Source: a virus
Lineage: Duplodnaviria; Caudoviricetes
Length of the DNA stretch: 64,000 bases
IMG/VR virus record: IMGVR_UViG_3300025018_000091
Reading direction: 5' to 3' (one strand)
Shown here: positions 2,871 to 47,430 of the stretch, piece by piece
How the letters are laid out: each line of letters begins with the position of its first letter
Numbering within the stretch: the stretch's first letter is position 1
Made by a program: the position numbers and the translations under genes
The notes under the pieces: model-generated
Database searches by the model: none
Seen by the model: only the letters and a program-made list of their open reading frames with translations
What the model was told of the DNA's origin: nothing

Positions 2871-5318
2871 TTATTTTCTATATGGAGTTGTAGGATAATA
2901 TGGAATCATTGGATCAGTTTTTGATTTTTCAATCATATCATAAAACATCTTTTCCCAATCTTTAGCTAAAGAATCTAATCCAAAATTCTCTTTTGCATAT
3001 TCCTGTAATACTAATCTATCATCTTCACTATTATTAAACATTGCATTAATGACTGCGCTGATAAAATTATTCTTATATTCTGAAGTTGTCCAATCACCAG
3101 GTATTAATGTCCCTCGTTCTCCTACTGTTTCATTTAAAGCTGCAATACTTGATGTAACCATACGCAATCCAGCAGCTTGAGCTTCCATTGCAGTAATACA
3201 ACTTGTTTCAGTAAACCAAGTAGGATGTATCCAACAACCTGCACTTAAAAATTCAATTGCCAATTCATCTTGATTTACTCTATCATGATAAAAAACACCC
3301 AATGACTCCATATCTTTTATTTGTTTCTTAAGTCTACTAATTAAATCAGCCTGTCCCTGATCATATTGTGCAGAATATTCCCAATTTTTGAAACCATAAA
3401 ATAAATGTAATTCTGCCTTTGGAACATGTGCCTTAATAGTTGTCCAACATTCTAGCAAAATTGGCCAACTTCTATCAGGACTACTACTATTAACTGCTTT
3501 AAATCTATTTCTTGGAACTTTTTTATTAAATCTGTTTAAATCAATTCCATTTCTAGTAACTGATACTTGTTCTGGATTAATATTATGTACTCTAATGATA
3601 TTATTTTTATGCCAATCAGATAACGCTAATACCTTATCTGTTTTTAATAATAATTCACTGGTCGCACCATTAGCAATTACATCATGAACCCATAACAATG
3701 TTACTTTTGCTTTTACATTATACTTATCTGCTAACATAGATGCATGACGTGATACAACCAAGATATCGCATTCTAAATTAGCATATTTTTCAGTTCTATA
3801 ATATTCAACACGATCATAAATTCCTTCATTATTTCCACAACTATTATAAACACGAACTCTATGACCTAAAGCAGCTAATCTTTTAGCCTGCTCAATTAAC
3901 ATTGTTTCGCTTCCACCAATTCCAAACTGTTTTACACTTATTGGTGTCCAAATTTCAACTCCATTACCTGCAAAAAAGATAATATCAAGCTTACCACCAA
4001 TAGGTTCGGCAATTGGTTCATCAACTTTTTGAGGCAATAATGCATCTTCATCAGCTTTGTTTTTTATTATAACCTTTTTATCTATTATACTGGTCATTAA
4101 TGATATTGATGCCGCATCTAATTCACCAATTTTTTCTAATTCTTTTATAGATTTGTAAATTTGACGATGTAATAAGTTTATTTCATAAAGACGTTTATTT
4201 AACAAAAATGCCGGCTCAGTTGGTTCATATCTTAATCCTCTATTTACGCTATCTAAAGCCTCTTCTATTCTTCCAAGCTTATTTAATGCAAAATTATAGT
4301 ATTTATGAATTTCATATTCTCTATCTGCAGGATTTATGAACAAAAGTGTTTTAGTTTCAGAACAACCAAGACCTAATTTAATGAAATAAACACATCTTTC
4401 CCAATTGCGTATTTCATCTCTTCCGCCCTGCTGTGCCAAATAATAGAATATTCGACCTAAAGCAAGATAGCCTTCTGCCCAAGATTCTTTAATAGCTACC
4501 GTTTTAAACGCCCACTTAAGTGCAGATTCATAATCTTGACGCATTTGATAAATATCAATCAATTTTAAGCAAGCCATTGCTCGCTCATCATCCCAACCAG
4601 ATACATCTATATATTTTGATAAACGCTCAATTGCCTCATCCATTAAATTAGCATTATAGCACTCAAGACCTAAATAATATAATTGGCGAGGGTCAGAATC
4701 TCCATGCTTTTCAAAATATGAACGTAAGATCCTTAAATTACGACCAAATTCTTGTACTTTTTTACTAAGATATCTTTGATGTTTAAATAAAACATCTTCT
4801 ACTGTTTGGAAAAAACAAGAAGGATCTTTATTAATCAATACTTCATGAACTGGATTTACCCAATGAAATCGATCTTTATTATAAACTAAACGCTCTCTAT
4901 AATGATAACATGTACATTTTCCATTGCTATCATATGCGTATTCATATGGAAACATTAAACATACTGATTTATCTTCACTATCTGGAAGATAATCTTGGAT
5001 TATTTTTAATAGATTTTCACCTTTAGTAATAATATCATCTGCATCAACCCACAATACCCATGGTTGAGTTGCTAAATCAAATGATCTTTGTCTCGCTTGT
5101 GAAAAACTTTCAATTAATCCAGTTTCAGAATTATTGCAATCTGTATATACTTCAAAAATATCAGCATATTTTTTCGCAATTTCAGGAGTATTATCTGTTG
5201 AACCAGTATCAACAATAACAATTTCTGAAACATAATCCTTTATTGAATTCAAACATTGTTCTAATAATGGTTCATCACGAACAATTAAACATAGTGAAAT
5301 AGGCGCGCGTTCAATCAT
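2871..5318 (-). CDS. Multidomain glycosyltransferase: GT2 (GT-A) + TPR + GT4 (GT-B)
   Basis: ISLCLIVRDE, IVIVDTGSTDNT, WVLWVDADD (DxD) and FHWVNPVHE; then TPR helices (DPRQLYYLGLEC, WAEGYLALG); then GIGGSETML, SSPDR and ETSCITAMEAQAAG. Confidence 0.9.
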   Translation of the reverse strand: MIERAPISLCLIVRDEPLLEQCLNSIKDYVSEIVIVDTGSTDNTPEIAKKYADIFEVYTDCNNSETGLIESFSQARQRSFDLATQPWVLWVDADDIITKGENLLKIIQDYLPDSEDKSVCLMFPYEYAYDSNGKCTCYHYRERLVYNKDRFHWVNPVHEVLINKDPSCFFQTVEDVLFKHQRYLSKKVQEFGRNLRILRSYFEKHGDSDPRQLYYLGLECYNANLMDEAIERLSKYIDVSGWDDERAMACLKLIDIYQMRQDYESALKWAFKTVAIKESWAEGYLALGRIFYYLAQQGGRDEIRNWERCVYFIKLGLGCSETKTLLFINPADREYEIHKYYNFALNKLGRIEEALDSVNRGLRYEPTEPAFLLNKRLYEINLLHRQIYKSIKELEKIGELDAASISLMTSIIDKKVIIKNKADEDALLPQKVDEPIAEPIGGKLDIIFFAGNGVEIWTPISVKQFGIGGSETMLIEQAKRLAALGHRVRVYNSCGNNEGIYDRVEYYRTEKYANLECDILVVSRHASMLADKYNVKAKVTLLWVHDVIANGATSELLLKTDKVLALSDWHKNNIIRVHNINPEQVSVTRNGIDLNRFNKKVPRNRFKAVNSSSPDRSWPILLECWTTIKAHVPKAELHLFYGFKNWEYSAQYDQGQADLISRLKKQIKDMESLGVFYHDRVNQDELAIEFLSAGCWIHPTWFTETSCITAMEAQAAGLRMVTSSIAALNETVGERGTLIPGDWTTSEYKNNFISAVINAMFNNSEDDRLVLQEYAKENFGLDSLAKDWEKMFYDMIEKSKTDPMIPYYPTTPYRK

Positions 5319-23398: not shown

Positions 23399-24181
23399 TT
23401 ACTGTTTTATTGTATCAAGACGTCCATATCTTAACATACGCAGACCGTGCTTGTTACAATACCTTATACCATCAATAATCTTATATTTCGCCTTGCCACA
23501 AATATTACAACCAGGAACACTGCACTTTATATCTGTATAATCAATTCGCCTTTTCCAAGCATCAATAGCACTTATAGATTTATTTTTCTTTGTATTCTCA
23601 GAATCTTTGTGCCCTATATGAACTTCAGACATATGCTTTCTTACTTCCTGTGTATAAATAGATTCATTATCTTTAGATTTCTGAATCATACTCATATTGG
23701 CTTTCTGTTCTGCAGTACGTTTAGTTCCTAATGCAGGATGTCCTTGTGTAGCAATTTGTTTTATTGTTGCTTCTCTTTGTTGCTGTTTGATTTTTTCTTT
23801 TTCTTCAATAGATAATGACGCATGCCAATCTCTCATCATTTTCTTAAACTTATCAGATTTAGGGGCATTCATTCCACCATAGGTAACATTATAGCCAGTA
23901 TTAAACTGTATATATGTATTATACTGTTTTACTAATTCCGTTTCAAGATAGTTTGCATCATCTTGCGATTTACAAGAAGCTATTATTTCAAATTTGAAAT
24001 TATCAATTCCATATTTTAAGAAAGCAAAATGAATAGCTTGACTTGGCTTATTTTTATAAAAAGCTCTACGATGATCGGAAAATCTTTTAGCGATATTAGT
24101 TGTTTGACCAATATATTTTTTGTCATTAACTGCATTTGTGATTATGTAAAGTGACCATATTTTCTGTATATGTTGCGCCAT
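23399..24181 (-). mobile_element. GIY-YIG homing endonuclease
   Basis: SLYIITN...KKYIGQT...KRFSDH...FEII...E...YN...GYNVTYGG, NUMOD3-like repeats, C-terminal CxxxxC...CxxH; own GGAGG RBS. Confidence 0.9.
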
Positions 24182-42553: not shown

Positions 42554-42616
42554 CGAGTACCTCTAGACCTAACTCTATGATATGTTTATATGCATTTATA
42601 TGCGATATTAGTTATA

Positions 42617-44149
42617 TTAAATCCACATCTTATCGTAAAGAGTATTTCCAGAATCAGTTGTTCCATATTCTGGATCCTCATCATTTGGTGCGTCTAAATC
42701 TTCTTTTGGAGAAATTCCATCTGGTAAACCATATAAATCTGGCTCTCTAGGACTTAAAGTTCCAATTAATTCATCTAATAAAGATTGCAGATCATTAATA
42801 TTATCAATTGCATTATCACCTTCTTCAGAATCATAATCCCTTCCGAAATCTAACTTGTCAGGACTTTTTCCTTCAAAATCTGGCATTGTTAAATATTCGT
42901 CCAGTTGACCACCTATAGGTATGGAGTCTCCATAGGCTCCAGAATCTCCTAAAATGGGTGAGGAATTAATTTGATCATCGATTGGAAAATCAATTGCGGT
43001 CTTCACAAAAGACGATAATAATATCATTCTTCTAGCAATCTTATTACTTTTCTTTTGACCTTTAGTTATACTACCATCATCTTCTATATAGGAATCATCA
43101 GATTTATATTTGTTTTTATTACGCTTTCTTTTTTTCTTTAGAAAATCATCAACACTCTTATACTTTTCCATATTCTGGTAAAAACCAGCCCCTGGTCCAT
43201 GCTTTGCTGGACCATCAACACCTTCGGTCTCATATAAATCATAATTTTTAAAAAGCGGTTCTTTAAAACGAGGTTGTACGACTATAGCCCTTTCAGACTT
43301 ATACTTCTTTTTATTCGGAGTAGGTTCATTTTCTCCACCGCCTCCTTGAAAATATGCTTGTTTTGTATTATTTTTCATGTGTTTAATATAATATGGATAA
43401 AACTGTTTGTATACTGGAATATTATTAGCAATAATGAAAGAAGTTATATTGTTCCATATATTCATCTTAGAAATATAATATTCTGCACGATCTGCATCCC
43501 ATTTAAAAGCATCATTTATCTTATCAGCAAATGAATTATGAGTTGCGATTTTTATGACTTCAGGATGCTTAGAAACATACTCTATTATAGAACTATCAAT
43601 ATCAAAATTAAGCTTGGATGCTAAATATATTGATCTAATCGCTCTATTCTTATTTGAAGTCAACGTAATTTCTGGAGATAAACATGTTTTAATTTTCTTT
43701 TCTTTTATATCTTTGAAACCATGTCCAGTAGGATCTATCACATTTTTTAAATCAAAAGATAGCAATAATGCATTGCATGTAAAATCTCTACTAAATAATT
43801 CTCTTTGCATATTAGTTAGTTTAGCAATGCCCCTATTATGCAATATATTATCAATTCCTGTTACCATAAAATTTGATGAAAAATCTATTTTTAACTTACC
43901 AATAAAAATAGAACTATGTCCATCAGACATGGTTTTTCTTAAAATATTATATTTCTTTTGCAGTTCTGTTGCAAATTCTTGTGATAGGTAATCACAAGTT
44001 TTATCGCCAGTAGTAATATCAATATCTGAGATTTTATCTAATCTATTAAGATACTTGTCTCTAGGTACACCCCCACATATTGTAGGGGCAGATACATCAA
44101 TTTCATTAGCAACAGACATCATTTGATTTAATAAATCACGTAATTTCAT
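42617..44149 (-). CDS. Divergent class II (CCA/poly(A) polymerase family) nucleotidyltransferase with an acidic C-terminal extension
   Basis: CGGVPRD...SDIDITT (catalytic DxD intact), FSRDFTCNAL, DPTGHGFKDIK; motif D altered to TSNKNRAIR. Start probably at the ATGA overlap (44149). Confidence 0.8.
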   Translation of the reverse strand: MKLRDLLNQMMSVANEIDVSAPTICGGVPRDKYLNRLDKISDIDITTGDKTCDYLSQEFATELQKKYNILRKTMSDGHSSIFIGKLKIDFSSNFMVTGIDNILHNRGIAKLTNMQRELFSRDFTCNALLLSFDLKNVIDPTGHGFKDIKEKKIKTCLSPEITLTSNKNRAIRSIYLASKLNFDIDSSIIEYVSKHPEVIKIATHNSFADKINDAFKWDADRAEYYISKMNIWNNITSFIIANNIPVYKQFYPYYIKHMKNNTKQAYFQGGGGENEPTPNKKKYKSERAIVVQPRFKEPLFKNYDLYETEGVDGPAKHGPGAGFYQNMEKYKSVDDFLKKKRKRNKNKYKSDDSYIEDDGSITKGQKKSNKIARRMILLSSFVKTAIDFPIDDQINSSPILGDSGAYGDSIPIGGQLDEYLTMPDFEGKSPDKLDFGRDYDSEEGDNAIDNINDLQSLLDELIGTLSPREPDLYGLPDGISPKEDLDAPNDEDPEYGTTDSGNTLYDKMWI

Positions 44150-44865
44150 ATATGTACCCATCGTTTTCTATTAACTATCTGATTAATAGTATTAGGTTTT
44201 ACATTATATTGTTTTGCTAATTCTGTTTGAGAACATTCGCCGTTATCCCATTTTCTTCTTATTTCTATAATATCTTCATTAGAAAACTTAGCATTCCATT
44301 GTTTTTCTCCTTGACAATTTTTGCTTATTAAGTGTTTTACTTCACCAGAAACCCGCCTATTTTTTAAAAAAGAAATAACTTCTTCAGAATGTTTTTTACC
44401 AAAAAAACCATTACGTTCACCAGATAATGATTTTGATAATTTATCTTTAACATCTTCTGTTAAATGTTTTCCGAAATTATGATTATTAGAACCTCTTATT
44501 TTATCACGAGAATCTTCATTCCATTTTAAACCAGAAACCCCTTCGCCGCCATCTGTTAAATTCATACCAACATTAGGATCTCTAGAATTAAAAAAAATAA
44601 TCCAAAACTTTTCTCTATCAAAAGCTTCTTGTTCCGTAATGTTATTCTCTAGTTCTTCAATAATAAAATTTTCCACACCATATTTATTAATTGACTTATG
44701 AAGATACTGATATGCTTTTTTTTCTCTATTCTTAGCTATCTTTATATGTTTTTTCCAACGATTATTAATATCAGAAGTTTTTCCAATATAAACCTTTCCA
44801 TTTATAAGATTAATAATCTTATAAACACAAAATTTATTATTTTGAAGTAATTCGCGAAGTTTCAT
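44146..44865 (-). mobile_element. GIY-YIG homing endonuclease (NUMOD3 + HTH)
   Basis: CVYKIINLINGKVYIGKT...RWKKH...GMNLTDGGEG...FFGKKHSEE...SQTELAKQYNV. Confidence 0.9.
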
Positions 44866-44879
44866 GCATTTTCTTCATA

Positions 44880-46682
44880 TTAAACAGCTGGTGGCTTAGC
44901 GACGGGAGCTGGTGGAGGTGGAGGTGCGTTTTCTAATCCTTCTAATTCTACTTCAGGAGTTTCTTTTATTTCATTTTGAAGAGATTCATTTTCTAAATCT
45001 TTTCTCATTTGCTTTCTGGCAATTTCTTTTTCATCTTGTTCTTGAAGTGATTTTTTTGCCTGCTCTATTTCTGGAGACTTTGCCTTTTCGCCTTCATTTT
45101 TAACATCAATATCTCTTGTCTTCATAGTTCCACGAAGCTTAGAAATAATATCTTCTAAACGAGTAGAGATATAGTTATTAGCTTCAAGTGCTTTATTTGT
45201 AGCTTCTGATAAAGCTGGGAAAAATGGTGCCAACCCTAAACTATCTAACATCATATCTGCTAAAGCTAATTGACGAGGCATCTCTCTTGTTTTATAGAAT
45301 TTTGCGATATCTTCAAATTTTGCCACAACATCAGAAATAGTAAGATTAGAAAATACAGATTCTACCATATGATCAAAATCTTTAGATGGTTGTTCAGGCG
45401 CTATATCATCTTCAGTTACTTCTAAATTTTCATCTGGCTTCTTTGGAGATGGAAGTGGCGGTGGTGGTAATGGTTCTGGTGATTCTGCTTGAGCAGTAGA
45501 TACAAATTCATCATCTTCTACAATTAAATCATCTTCAGTATCCATTACTTCAAGAGTGTCAGCACTAGTATTTCCTGTTTCTAATTTATCTAAAAATTGT
45601 TTAATACCTTCAGAAACTGGTTCTTTAGGTTCGGCAGGAATAGGTTCAGTAGGAACAGCTTCGGGAGCAGGAGTTGTAGTTCCTGGTGTAGTTGCTGGCA
45701 ATCCACCAACGTCTCCACTTCCTTGCATTGGTGGTGCTGGTGGGGGTGGTTCAGGTGCATTTTCAACAGGAGACTCATTAGTAGGTTCTTCTGATTTATC
45801 TTTAGGCGCATTAGGATCTTCAGCTAAAGAATGTAATATATCTGCTGCTTTTACAAATCCCTGATATGTAAGTTTATTTGCTGAACGTACAATCATATCG
45901 GCATAAAGCTTATCTGATGAACTACGTTTATTTACCATTTGAATTTTCTTTTTTAAATCATATATGGTTTCTAATAGTAATGCAAATTCCTTATCAGCAA
46001 ATAGCTGTCCATCTTGAGAGCGTAATAGTTTTTCTGCAGAATCCAATCTGCCAATAATCTTATTGCGCTGCTTTTCTATAATTTTCTTTCTTTCTGAAGC
46101 AGATAGTTCATCTACGGCGGCATCTCTGGCAAAATCTATACTATCACCATTAACCTGCTCTTTTTCTTCTTCTTTTGGATCAGGTTTAATTGGTAGCAAA
46201 TATCCAACATCTGCATCACCATACCAGTTATGAGCGACCTTATATTTTAAATGAGTACCTTCTTCATAATATCTTAACCAATTAAGAAAATCATTTACTT
46301 CAGTAACTCTCCAGCCTTGTGTTGCATTACGGACAGCAATATTTCTTGGTAATTGATGTCGTTTTTCTTCAAAATATATATCTTTTACTGTTTGCAGCCA
46401 CTTACTCATATCATGAGCACCAGGTATATTTTGCATTTGTTCAAGATTAGGATATGCTACCTTAGACTTAACCTTTTCTAATAATTGAGGGTCAACTTTT
46501 CCTAAATCATCTACATTAACACCAAGCTGCTCTAATATTCTTAATTGTCTAATAATCCTCATTATTACTACAGGATCATTAGTATCTAAGCCACTATCAG
46601 TATAAGGAGTAATTAAATCACTCCATGTAGGTGTATTTTCTGTTTCTGTAATGTTATGTGATTTTGGCATGATCTCACTCAT
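44880..46682 (-). CDS. Hypothetical head-associated protein, Pro-rich
   Basis: 600 aa with coiled-coil and poly-Pro linkers; contains the helical-hairpin motif. Confidence 0.55.
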   Translation of the reverse strand: MSEIMPKSHNITETENTPTWSDLITPYTDSGLDTNDPVVIMRIIRQLRILEQLGVNVDDLGKVDPQLLEKVKSKVAYPNLEQMQNIPGAHDMSKWLQTVKDIYFEEKRHQLPRNIAVRNATQGWRVTEVNDFLNWLRYYEEGTHLKYKVAHNWYGDADVGYLLPIKPDPKEEEKEQVNGDSIDFARDAAVDELSASERKKIIEKQRNKIIGRLDSAEKLLRSQDGQLFADKEFALLLETIYDLKKKIQMVNKRSSSDKLYADMIVRSANKLTYQGFVKAADILHSLAEDPNAPKDKSEEPTNESPVENAPEPPPPAPPMQGSGDVGGLPATTPGTTTPAPEAVPTEPIPAEPKEPVSEGIKQFLDKLETGNTSADTLEVMDTEDDLIVEDDEFVSTAQAESPEPLPPPPLPSPKKPDENLEVTEDDIAPEQPSKDFDHMVESVFSNLTISDVVAKFEDIAKFYKTREMPRQLALADMMLDSLGLAPFFPALSEATNKALEANNYISTRLEDIISKLRGTMKTRDIDVKNEGEKAKSPEIEQAKKSLQEQDEKEIARKQMRKDLENESLQNEIKETPEVELEGLENAPPPPPAPVAKPPAV

Positions 46683-47430
46683 TTATTTTCTTATTAATTG
46701 TTTCACTTAACAATTTGGCTTCAGCCAATCTCACTTCGGTATTAGGACCATCTTTTTCTACAGGGAGTTTTAACTTAGAAAATTCCTCGTTAAATACTTC
46801 CATAAAATATAGAGATGTTTCTAAATCCATCTGAGATAAAACTTTTCTGATTACATCATGAAATACTGAAATATGCTGATCTACTACCTGTAAAGTTACT
46901 TTATGTTCTACTGTTTGATTCACTGGTACCTCTGTAAATTTATAATATTTTTCCAGTATATTTCCTAATACTTCTGCATAATCAATAAGTAGTCTATCTA
47001 CTCTAGTATTAATATTTCTTGGATCTTCTTGAATTTCGTCAAATACTTGAGCTAAACGACTTTCAATAGCAACACATAAATTAGTAATAATTTGTCTAAT
47101 ATCTAATTCTTTACCTGCCAATTCAAGCATTTTACTTTTATAGGTAGGATTATTTTGTACAGATAAAGCTAGTTGTTCTTCTGTGCTGGTAGCTAATGCT
47201 GATTTAGATTTTACCAAATCATCATTAATCATATTATAAATATCTAAATAATTAGACTGAAAAGACTTGATAGATTTTTCAGCAATAACAAATTTAGCTT
47301 CACTTACATTTGTATATTTAGCTTTTAACCAATCATGTATATCTTTTGATGATATACCAATAACTAACTTCGAGATAATCTCGTCTTTATCTGGATGCTC
47401 TAAAATCTTCTTGAGTGCATTTTTGTTCAT
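46675..47430 (-). CDS. Hypothetical protein (possible small terminase, weak)
   Basis: N-terminal HTH-like helices followed by coiled-coil; upstream of terL in the same operon. Confidence 0.35.
   Translation of the reverse strand: MNKNALKKILEHPDKDEIISKLVIGISSKDIHDWLKAKYTNVSEAKFVIAEKSIKSFQSNYLDIYNMINDDLVKSKSALATSTEEQLALSVQNNPTYKSKMLELAGKELDIRQIITNLCVAIESRLAQVFDEIQEDPRNINTRVDRLLIDYAEVLGNILEKYYKFTEVPVNQTVEHKVTLQVVDQHISVFHDVIRKVLSQMDLETSLYFMEVFNEEFSKLKLPVEKDGPNTEVRLAEAKLLSETINKKINE

Follow-up and report, generated by a model that had tools for sequence, protein, structure and literature searches.

A phage GIY-YIG homing endonuclease gene apparently fused to the first codons of its target gene and carrying a diverged replacement for them

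Why would two neighboring phage genes begin with almost the same eight residues written in different codons? We addressed this question for a 64,000-nucleotide stretch of DNA (here called the window) from IMG/VR virus record IMGVR_UViG_3300025018_000091 (Duplodnaviria; Caudoviricetes), in which a free-standing GIY-YIG homing endonuclease gene lies directly upstream of, and overlaps, a nucleotidyltransferase (NT) gene. The phage is a huge phage from an aquifer (groundwater), and a 444-kb contig is on record as encoding the endonuclease protein. The window is AT-rich, and all genes of the region are on the minus strand. The endonuclease begins with ATG AAA CTT CGC GAA TTA CTT CAA (MKLRELLQ) and the NT begins with ATG AAA TTA CGT GAT TTA TTA AAT (MKLRDLLN). 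The near-identity of the peptides despite differing codons, which a first-pass annotation of the window had pointed out, can be read directly from the two starts, with 16 of 24 bases and 6 of 8 residues being the same. Over residues 2 to 8, the two proteins have five residues in common, compared to a maximum of four otherwise among 1953 pairs of window open reading frames (ORFs) of at least 100 aa. The match between the endonuclease and NT starts is not due to chance.

Comparison of relatives with and without the endonuclease suggested how this arrangement arose. We consider it very probable that a free-standing, I-TevI-like GIY-YIG gene homes into the 5′ end of the NT gene and brings with it foreign NT codons 1 to 30. 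One half of the evidence concerns the first 24 nt of the endonuclease gene (the prefix). The closest endonuclease-free relative, locus L001, has flanks of about 82-85% nucleotide identity to the window; its NT start is preceded by the same upstream gene and an identical 14-nt spacer. In blastn alignments, L001 positions 4001-4026 matched the window twice, at the endonuclease start (44865-44840) and at the NT start (44149-44124). The prefix matched the NT start of an empty sister locus at 23 of 24 positions for the window and L001 and at 24/24 for both L172 versus L196 and L174 versus L218, compared to only 15-17 of 24 positions (16 in the window) for the downstream NT start of the same phage. 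The spacer preceding the start also matched between empty L001, L196, and L218 and occupied window, L172, and L174, respectively. Furthermore, codon 4 of the prefix follows the backbone lineage, being CGC in the window and L001 and CAC in L172 and L196. The NT starts of endonuclease-free relatives therefore carry the codon version of the endonuclease. These pairs bear out the proposals of the first-pass annotation that the endonuclease inserted a few codons into the NT gene, which we can place after codon 8, and that it took over the original start. Since about 80 of 120 NT homologues, among the matches listed, start with MKLRELLQ or a close variant, MKLRELLQ is the consensus start of the NT family; the remaining homologues among these 120 have other starts that are mostly truncated gene calls. 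These comparisons demonstrate that the endonuclease prefix derives from the resident NT start and place the native initiation region for NT translation, which the endonuclease now uses, in the 14-nt spacer.

The other half of the evidence concerns the 5′ end of the NT gene itself. Occupied L172 and empty L196 were 97.6% identical over 2524 nt, through the first 24 nt of the prefix. Only 54 of the first 90 nt of their NT genes were identical, whereas identity from nucleotide 91 on was 96-100%, and synonymous divergence (dS) was 2.3 (saturated) for NT codons 1 to 30 versus 0.16 for codons 31 to 230. This sharp 90-nt drop between L172 and L196 indicates a replacement, in which resident codons 9 to 30 were exchanged for the endonuclease body and new codons 1 to 30. 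A drop in identity limited to the first 90 nt of NT was also observed for the window and L001, L174 and L218, and L176 and L202. Within NT nucleotides 1-90, the window was identical to occupied L172 at 80 of 90 positions and to empty L001 at 56/90; from about nucleotide 150 on, the window NT was closer to L001 than to L172, and its left flank was closer to L001 throughout. The endonuclease together with the 90-nt tract was about 90% identical between the window and L172, with a dS of 0.25 for the endonuclease body and 0.30 for NT codons 1 to 30, compared to 1.78 for the backbone (NT codons 31 to 230). Because dS of the cassette is far below that of the backbone, the endonuclease and the 30-codon tract share a more recent ancestor than do the genomes that carry them. 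Linkage of a 90-nt flanking tract to the endonuclease is the pattern left by co-conversion. These findings demonstrate, as far as allele comparison can, an endonuclease fused to a resident start and an NT gene restarted from imported codons, with the 30-codon tract being of foreign origin and having sharp boundaries. The first-pass annotation had suggested that a recoded copy restores the NT gene. A second copy does rebuild the gene, but it spans 30 codons instead of 8 and is an imported allele instead of a recoding in place. The cassette bounds in Table 1 were set by the L172/L196 pair and by comparison of the window with L001 and L172. The 600-aa gene upstream had no Pfam or PHROG match.

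Table 1. Parts of the endonuclease-NT locus, in window coordinates
Feature	Position	Strand	Basis or remark
Upstream gene, 600 aa	44880..46682	-	From the ORF list; proposed left homology arm
Resident spacer, 14 nt	44866..44879	-	Same as spacer 5′ of the NT start in endonuclease-free L001
Captured resident NT start, codons 1-8 plus 2 nt	44840..44865	-	In-frame fusion to the endonuclease; prefix MKLRELLQ
Free-standing GIY-YIG homing endonuclease gene, 239 aa	44146..44865	-	Pfam, PHROG, and I-TevI alignment
GIY-YIG domain	about 44551-44835	-	Residues 11-89; Pfam PF01541, 1.9e-10
NUMOD3 motif	about 44380-44463	-	Residues 135-162; Pfam, 2e-11
C-terminal helix-turn-helix	about 44161-44268	-	Helix-turn-helix-type matches at residues 200-236
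Proposed mobile cassette (endonuclease codon 9 to stop plus new NT codons 1-30)	44060..44839	-	Bounds from allele comparisons
ATGA stop/start overlap, endonuclease/NT	44146..44149	-	NT ATG at 44149-44147; endonuclease TGA at 44148-44146
Cassette-borne replacement NT 5′ end, codons 1-30	44060..44149	-	GG..RD motif kept; 34/90 nt differ from closest empty-site allele
NT (target/host gene), 510 aa	42617..44149	-	PolyA_pol head, PF01743, 5.8e-13

The features of the endonuclease are those of an enzyme of the I-TevI type. PHROG homing-endonuclease families matched the ORF at 6e-36, and residues 12 to 105 aligned with I-TevI residues 3 to 93 with low sequence identity (phmmer E value of 2e-8). Y15, Y26, R36, H40, E85, and N102, the equivalents of the catalytic Tyr, Tyr, Arg, His, Glu, and Asn of I-TevI, were invariant across 27 close relatives. 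The gene is under purifying selection (omega of 0.25 for the window versus L172), and the ORF was intact at all nine distinct occupied loci; an intact endonuclease with a GTG start was found at L245. IMG/VR scans with the single protein and with an alignment detected many distant GIY-YIG genes and only one close relative, on the L008 contig.

We analyzed the distribution of the cassette over 98 loci with an NT 5′ end that were collected by protein, viral-contig, and metagenome searches and by contig look-ups. Eleven loci were occupied (nine distinct sequences), 69 were empty, and 18 had too little upstream sequence to be scored. Endonucleases of occupied loci were 55-86% identical to that of the window and always lay between the same upstream gene and NT. 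The ATGA overlap with NT, which the first-pass annotation had noted in the window, was present in 11 of 11 occupied loci. In nearly all of the 69 empty loci, the stop of the upstream gene preceded the NT start by 0-15 nt. Occupied loci were scattered over a tree built from NT core residues 51 to 235, requiring nine gains or losses for 10 occupied rows, which was no better than with shuffled labels, and each occupied locus had an empty sister. At L199, a 31-nt gap (L199:1252-1282) precedes the NT start, and about 23 nt of it match the 3′ end of the endonuclease (...KRWTYI-stop), identifying this remnant by sequence as a deletion footprint. These findings demonstrate from locus comparison that the cassette spread horizontally and was also lost.

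The NT start is also occupied by other elements. At the same site in two other phages (L187:273-1184 and L231:1698-2600) lies a second endonuclease-like ORF, about 300 aa long and unrelated to the first. This ORF combines three treble-clef zinc-finger repeats (DUF723/DUF4379) with a conserved C-terminal domain without a Pfam match, and its copy at L187 also ends in an ATGA overlap with NT. A 200-nt stretch at L235 (2401-2600) is a decayed remnant of the same ORF. The presence of unrelated ORFs at one site makes the NT start a hot spot for different selfish elements.

The bounds of the cassette allow us to propose how the element would move without inactivating its target. The mobile unit would be the endonuclease from codon 9 onward plus foreign NT codons 1 to 30, and it would replace resident codons 9 to 30. 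The resident spacer, ATG, and codons 1 to 8 would stay in place to become both the start of the endonuclease and the end of a left homology arm that stops exactly at the junction, and the NT gene would be rebuilt from the imported start overlapping the endonuclease stop. Conservation of ATGA and the lack of a spacer between the genes argue for termination-reinitiation, by which the NT is probably translated. Between the imported 90 nt and endonuclease-free alleles, about 40% of positions differ. This divergence most likely destroys the enzyme's own target, which would confer immunity, and it would lessen pairing with the resident sequence. Since an active enzyme must spare its own genome, which keeps a complete NT 5′ end, the imported tract is probably resistant to the enzyme.

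The same bounds may locate the cleavage site. According to Edgell et al. (2010, PMC2988022), double-strand-break repair gives conversion tracts that originate at the break, with the ends being trimmed until homology is found in the donor. Because homology stops at codon 8 of the prefix and resumes at codon 31, the cut is predicted to occur within resident codons 9 to 30, and we infer that the enzyme cuts inside this segment. The sharply bounded, 66-nt replaced segment thus provides a precise prediction of the target. The strongest differences between empty and occupied alleles were at NT codons 7, 8, and 14. Codon 7 was CTN in 49 of 63 empty alleles and in 0 of 9 occupied ones, the first base of codon 8 was C in 51% of the same 63 empty alleles versus 0/9, and codon 14 was CAR (CAA or CAG) in 44/63 versus 0/9.

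Several observations weigh against this explanation or were not anticipated by it. The prediction that every NT allele with a cassette-like N terminus carries the endonuclease failed for L187, L193, L221, L222, and L228, which were empty or held something else. The empty loci L222, L228, L193, and L221 have cassette-like 5′ tracts, and tract type and occupancy are therefore not strictly linked; these loci might descend from occupied ones by precise loss, be naturally resistant, or represent the lineage that donated the tract. The NT 5′ tract of L199, which retains the deletion footprint, is largely of the consensus (empty-site) type, which a simple model does not predict. Occupied alleles could share their differences at codons 7, 8, and 14 through descent of their tracts from a common ancestor instead of through selection for resistance, and because the tract is inherited with the endonuclease, shared codon differences are not independent observations. 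Finally, the NT 5′ tract of L179, whose endonuclease lacks the prefix, is not foreign relative to that of its sister L248.

The L179 locus also bears on the order of events. We rooted the endonuclease tree on prefix-less outgroups. Two basal endonucleases lacked the prefix, and one of these, L179, lies at the NT site with an ATGA overlap, its ATG standing where the NT ATG would be. The prefix-bearing endonucleases formed one clade with a support of 97 in the Shimodaira-Hasegawa-like approximate likelihood ratio test (SH-aLRT); within this clade, 12 members had the full prefix and 7 a decayed one, and in the others it was replaced or lost. Since the tract of L179 is not foreign, start capture and tract import postdate the first colonization of the site. 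The likely history, as reconstructed from these trees and alleles, begins with simple insertion at the start codon, after which codons 1 to 8 were captured once and a diverged tract became fixed, and ends with spread of the cassette. One possibility for the capture event is an illegitimate join of a break end with the 5′ end of the endonuclease gene.

Whether the arrangement is an adapted design is a more tentative matter. We regard as possible, but rather doubtful, that one short duplication serves four roles, as an initiation region, a left homology arm, an uncuttable allele, and a block to recombination. In such a design, the retained codons would give the endonuclease a ready-made initiation region and a left arm ending at the break, so that copying would need little resection. 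The diverged 30 codons would make the occupied allele uncuttable. Their divergence would also keep the downstream copy from serving as a template for nonproductive repair and keep the two copies from recombining to delete the element. A half-site kept at the endonuclease's own start might also permit self-repression, as for I-TevI, which is described in PMC2988022 as repressing its own expression through an operator that resembles its homing site.

We weighed several other explanations for the locus against homing with an imported NT 5′ end. The first-pass annotation had itself raised the possibility that MKLR(E/D)LL is how this endonuclease family generally starts and bears no relation to the neighboring gene. 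Such a coincidence would be in line with the MKL-type prefixes of about 19 of the 27 closest endonuclease relatives, but alignments with more distant GIY-YIG relatives begin only at residue 11-14, and these relatives and I-TevI start directly at the GIY strand. Moreover, the prefix-bearing endonucleases with fetched context were all at the NT locus, the prefix and spacer match the NT starts of endonuclease-free sisters at the nucleotide level and vary with the backbone, and the shared peptide is the consensus start of the NT family. The pairs of empty and occupied loci refute a generic N terminus, to which we assign next to no probability. We consider it extremely unlikely that the endonuclease resides in a self-splicing intron or an intein with the MKLR copies as exon ends, even though many GIY-YIG endonucleases are intron encoded and JGI labels relatives of this one as “group I intron endonuclease.” The ORF extends over the entire insert, from the 14-nt spacer on its 5′ side to the ATGA overlap on its 3′ side, leaving no noncoding room for a ribozyme, and the downstream NT has its own complete start. 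Rfam searches of 43500-45500 at an E value of ≤1 found no intron match and only one chance match to a long noncoding RNA (lncRNA), so that the splicing the first-pass annotation had wished to see excluded left no signature here. GIY-YIG enzymes are not known to be inteins. We also rejected an assembly artifact, as the same arrangement occurred in independent assemblies of different samples. In Logan contigs of four aquifer runs, the same arrangement was found in the run that is the probable source of the window, and two identical 151-nt contigs bridged the junction in sister samples; the endonuclease-free joint was not found in these contigs, which cannot show absence.

A single ancient insertion, in which the first codons were duplicated in place and inherited vertically while the downstream copy drifted, with no present mobility, would account for the junction (the prefix and then F-C-V-Y-K-I) that is common to the SH-aLRT-supported clade and suggests one capture. 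Vertical descent is nevertheless at odds with the roughly 7-fold-lower synonymous divergence of the cassette than of the backbone between the window and L172, with near-identical phages that differ in presence of the element and in a saturated 90-nt tract, with the nine occupancy changes on the NT tree, and with a prefix that tracks the local lineage and not that of the cassette. We find this explanation very unlikely. The endonuclease might instead have been domesticated to serve the phage, for example, by excluding the markers of competitors or by regulating NT through the retained half-site. Purifying selection, the intact ORFs at occupied loci, and the autorepression by I-TevI all fit such a role, whereas patchy presence and a loss footprint are typical of the cycle of a selfish element. 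Although domestication seems unlikely to us, it is compatible with homing of the endonuclease with an imported NT 5′ end and does not exclude it.

The NT gene itself is of the PolyA_pol-head type (CCA-adding/poly(A) polymerase family) and matches the PHROG phage tRNA nucleotidyltransferase, with a C-terminal half that has no assigned function. We found 281 homologues, mostly on huge-phage contigs, and the contigs of NT relatives were 340-510 kb. In a phage collection, blastn with 42600-46700 returned no match and tblastn with NT returned only three remote gut-phage fragments. The MKL beginning of most listed homologues argues that 44149 is the true NT start. An in-frame ATG at 44161, 12 nt 5′ of this start and inside the 3′ end of the endonuclease (44150-44161, minus strand), reads MGTY... 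and may be chosen by gene callers; L008 has GTG at the same place. NT is a single 510-aa ORF in the window and in many relatives. In several others, an ORF of about 255 aa overlaps one of about 250 aa, and the split point is just 5′ of a conserved AYFQGGGG motif (spans compared were L001:4001-5522, L008:3606-5121, L172:3217-4727, and window 42617-44149). The gene could really be split in these relatives, or the two-ORF form could stem from a programmed frameshift or a sequencing error. The window NT also has about 10 extra residues (NNITSFIIANNIPVYKQF...) at about residues 233-250 (43400-43470, minus strand), where relatives have NYIPITKPVYPYY; this looks like a small local duplication. Paralogues were sought within the 64-kb window, which has a second free-standing GIY-YIG (SegE-like) gene of 260 aa at 23399-24181 (minus strand) among head genes. 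Its product is 32% identical to the endonuclease studied here, and its first residues are unlike the start of the gene downstream of it.

Free-standing homing endonucleases must enter conserved or essential genes without destroying them, and the known ways of doing so are introns, inteins, intergenic placement, and splitting of the host protein. The locus described here documents a further way in a phage, in which the invader takes the first codons of its target and delivers a spare, diverged gene start. The natural before-and-after pairs make for an unusually clean comparative demonstration. Such exchange accounts for the mosaic hot spot at the NT N terminus of huge phages and for the entry of short foreign tracts into conserved genes, and it explains why automated annotation will show two genes with the same first eight residues. 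A site that also hosts a second, unrelated kind of endonuclease-like ORF offers a natural system for studying competition between selfish elements.

Among known systems, the mobE insertion in Aeromonas phage Aeh1 reportedly splits nrdA into “genes in pieces,” with new stop and start signals keeping host function and the host protein said to consist of two polypeptides that reassemble. At the locus studied here, only eight codons are left behind, and a full-length host protein would be made from an imported start. I-TevI of the T4 td intron (PDB 1LN0 and 1MK0) has the same order of a GIY-YIG catalytic domain with its catalytic residues, NUMOD3, and helix-turn-helix. In contrast to I-TevI, which is intron encoded and whose host gene is kept whole by RNA splicing, our enzyme is free-standing and has a captured N-terminal extension of 9-10 residues. 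The SegF, SegG, and MobE endonucleases of T4-like phages also resemble it, as PMC2988022 describes for them intron-less homing between conserved genes, co-conversion of flanks, patchy presence, and tight stop/start overlaps with neighbors that suggest coupling (UAAUGA for mobE). These genes lie between genes and are coupled to the upstream gene, and that source describes none that is fused to its target's first codons or that brings a replacement start. At our locus, by contrast, the host gene appears to depend on an endonuclease frame that ends at the host ATG.

Start-codon capture or 5′-end replacement by a phage homing endonuclease was not found described in the searchable literature, which is incomplete. 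Foreign gene ends delivered by endonuclease genes are known from fungal mitochondria, and the same at a gene start in phages is what we did not find reported. The fungal cases, mobile ORFs (mORFs) in Allomyces macrogynus atp6 and in Glomus atp6, atp9, cox2, and nad3 (Beaudet et al. 2013, PMC3630166), are the closest analogue that we found. In these, an endonuclease ORF, which for atp9 encodes a GIY-YIG enzyme, travels with a divergent, foreign host-gene end that replaces the native end in phase, and the native end, which matches a close relative, is kept alongside the much more diverged inserted copy. The fungal elements differ in residing in an organelle and in replacing the 3′ (C-terminal) end of the gene, with the native end left as a dead remnant; in the phage, replacement affects the 5′ end, the endonuclease reuses the native remnant as its own start and initiation region, and NT restarts at ATGA. 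The phage cassette may thus be viewed as a mirror image of the fungal mORFs, similar in mechanism, with no shared ancestry implied.

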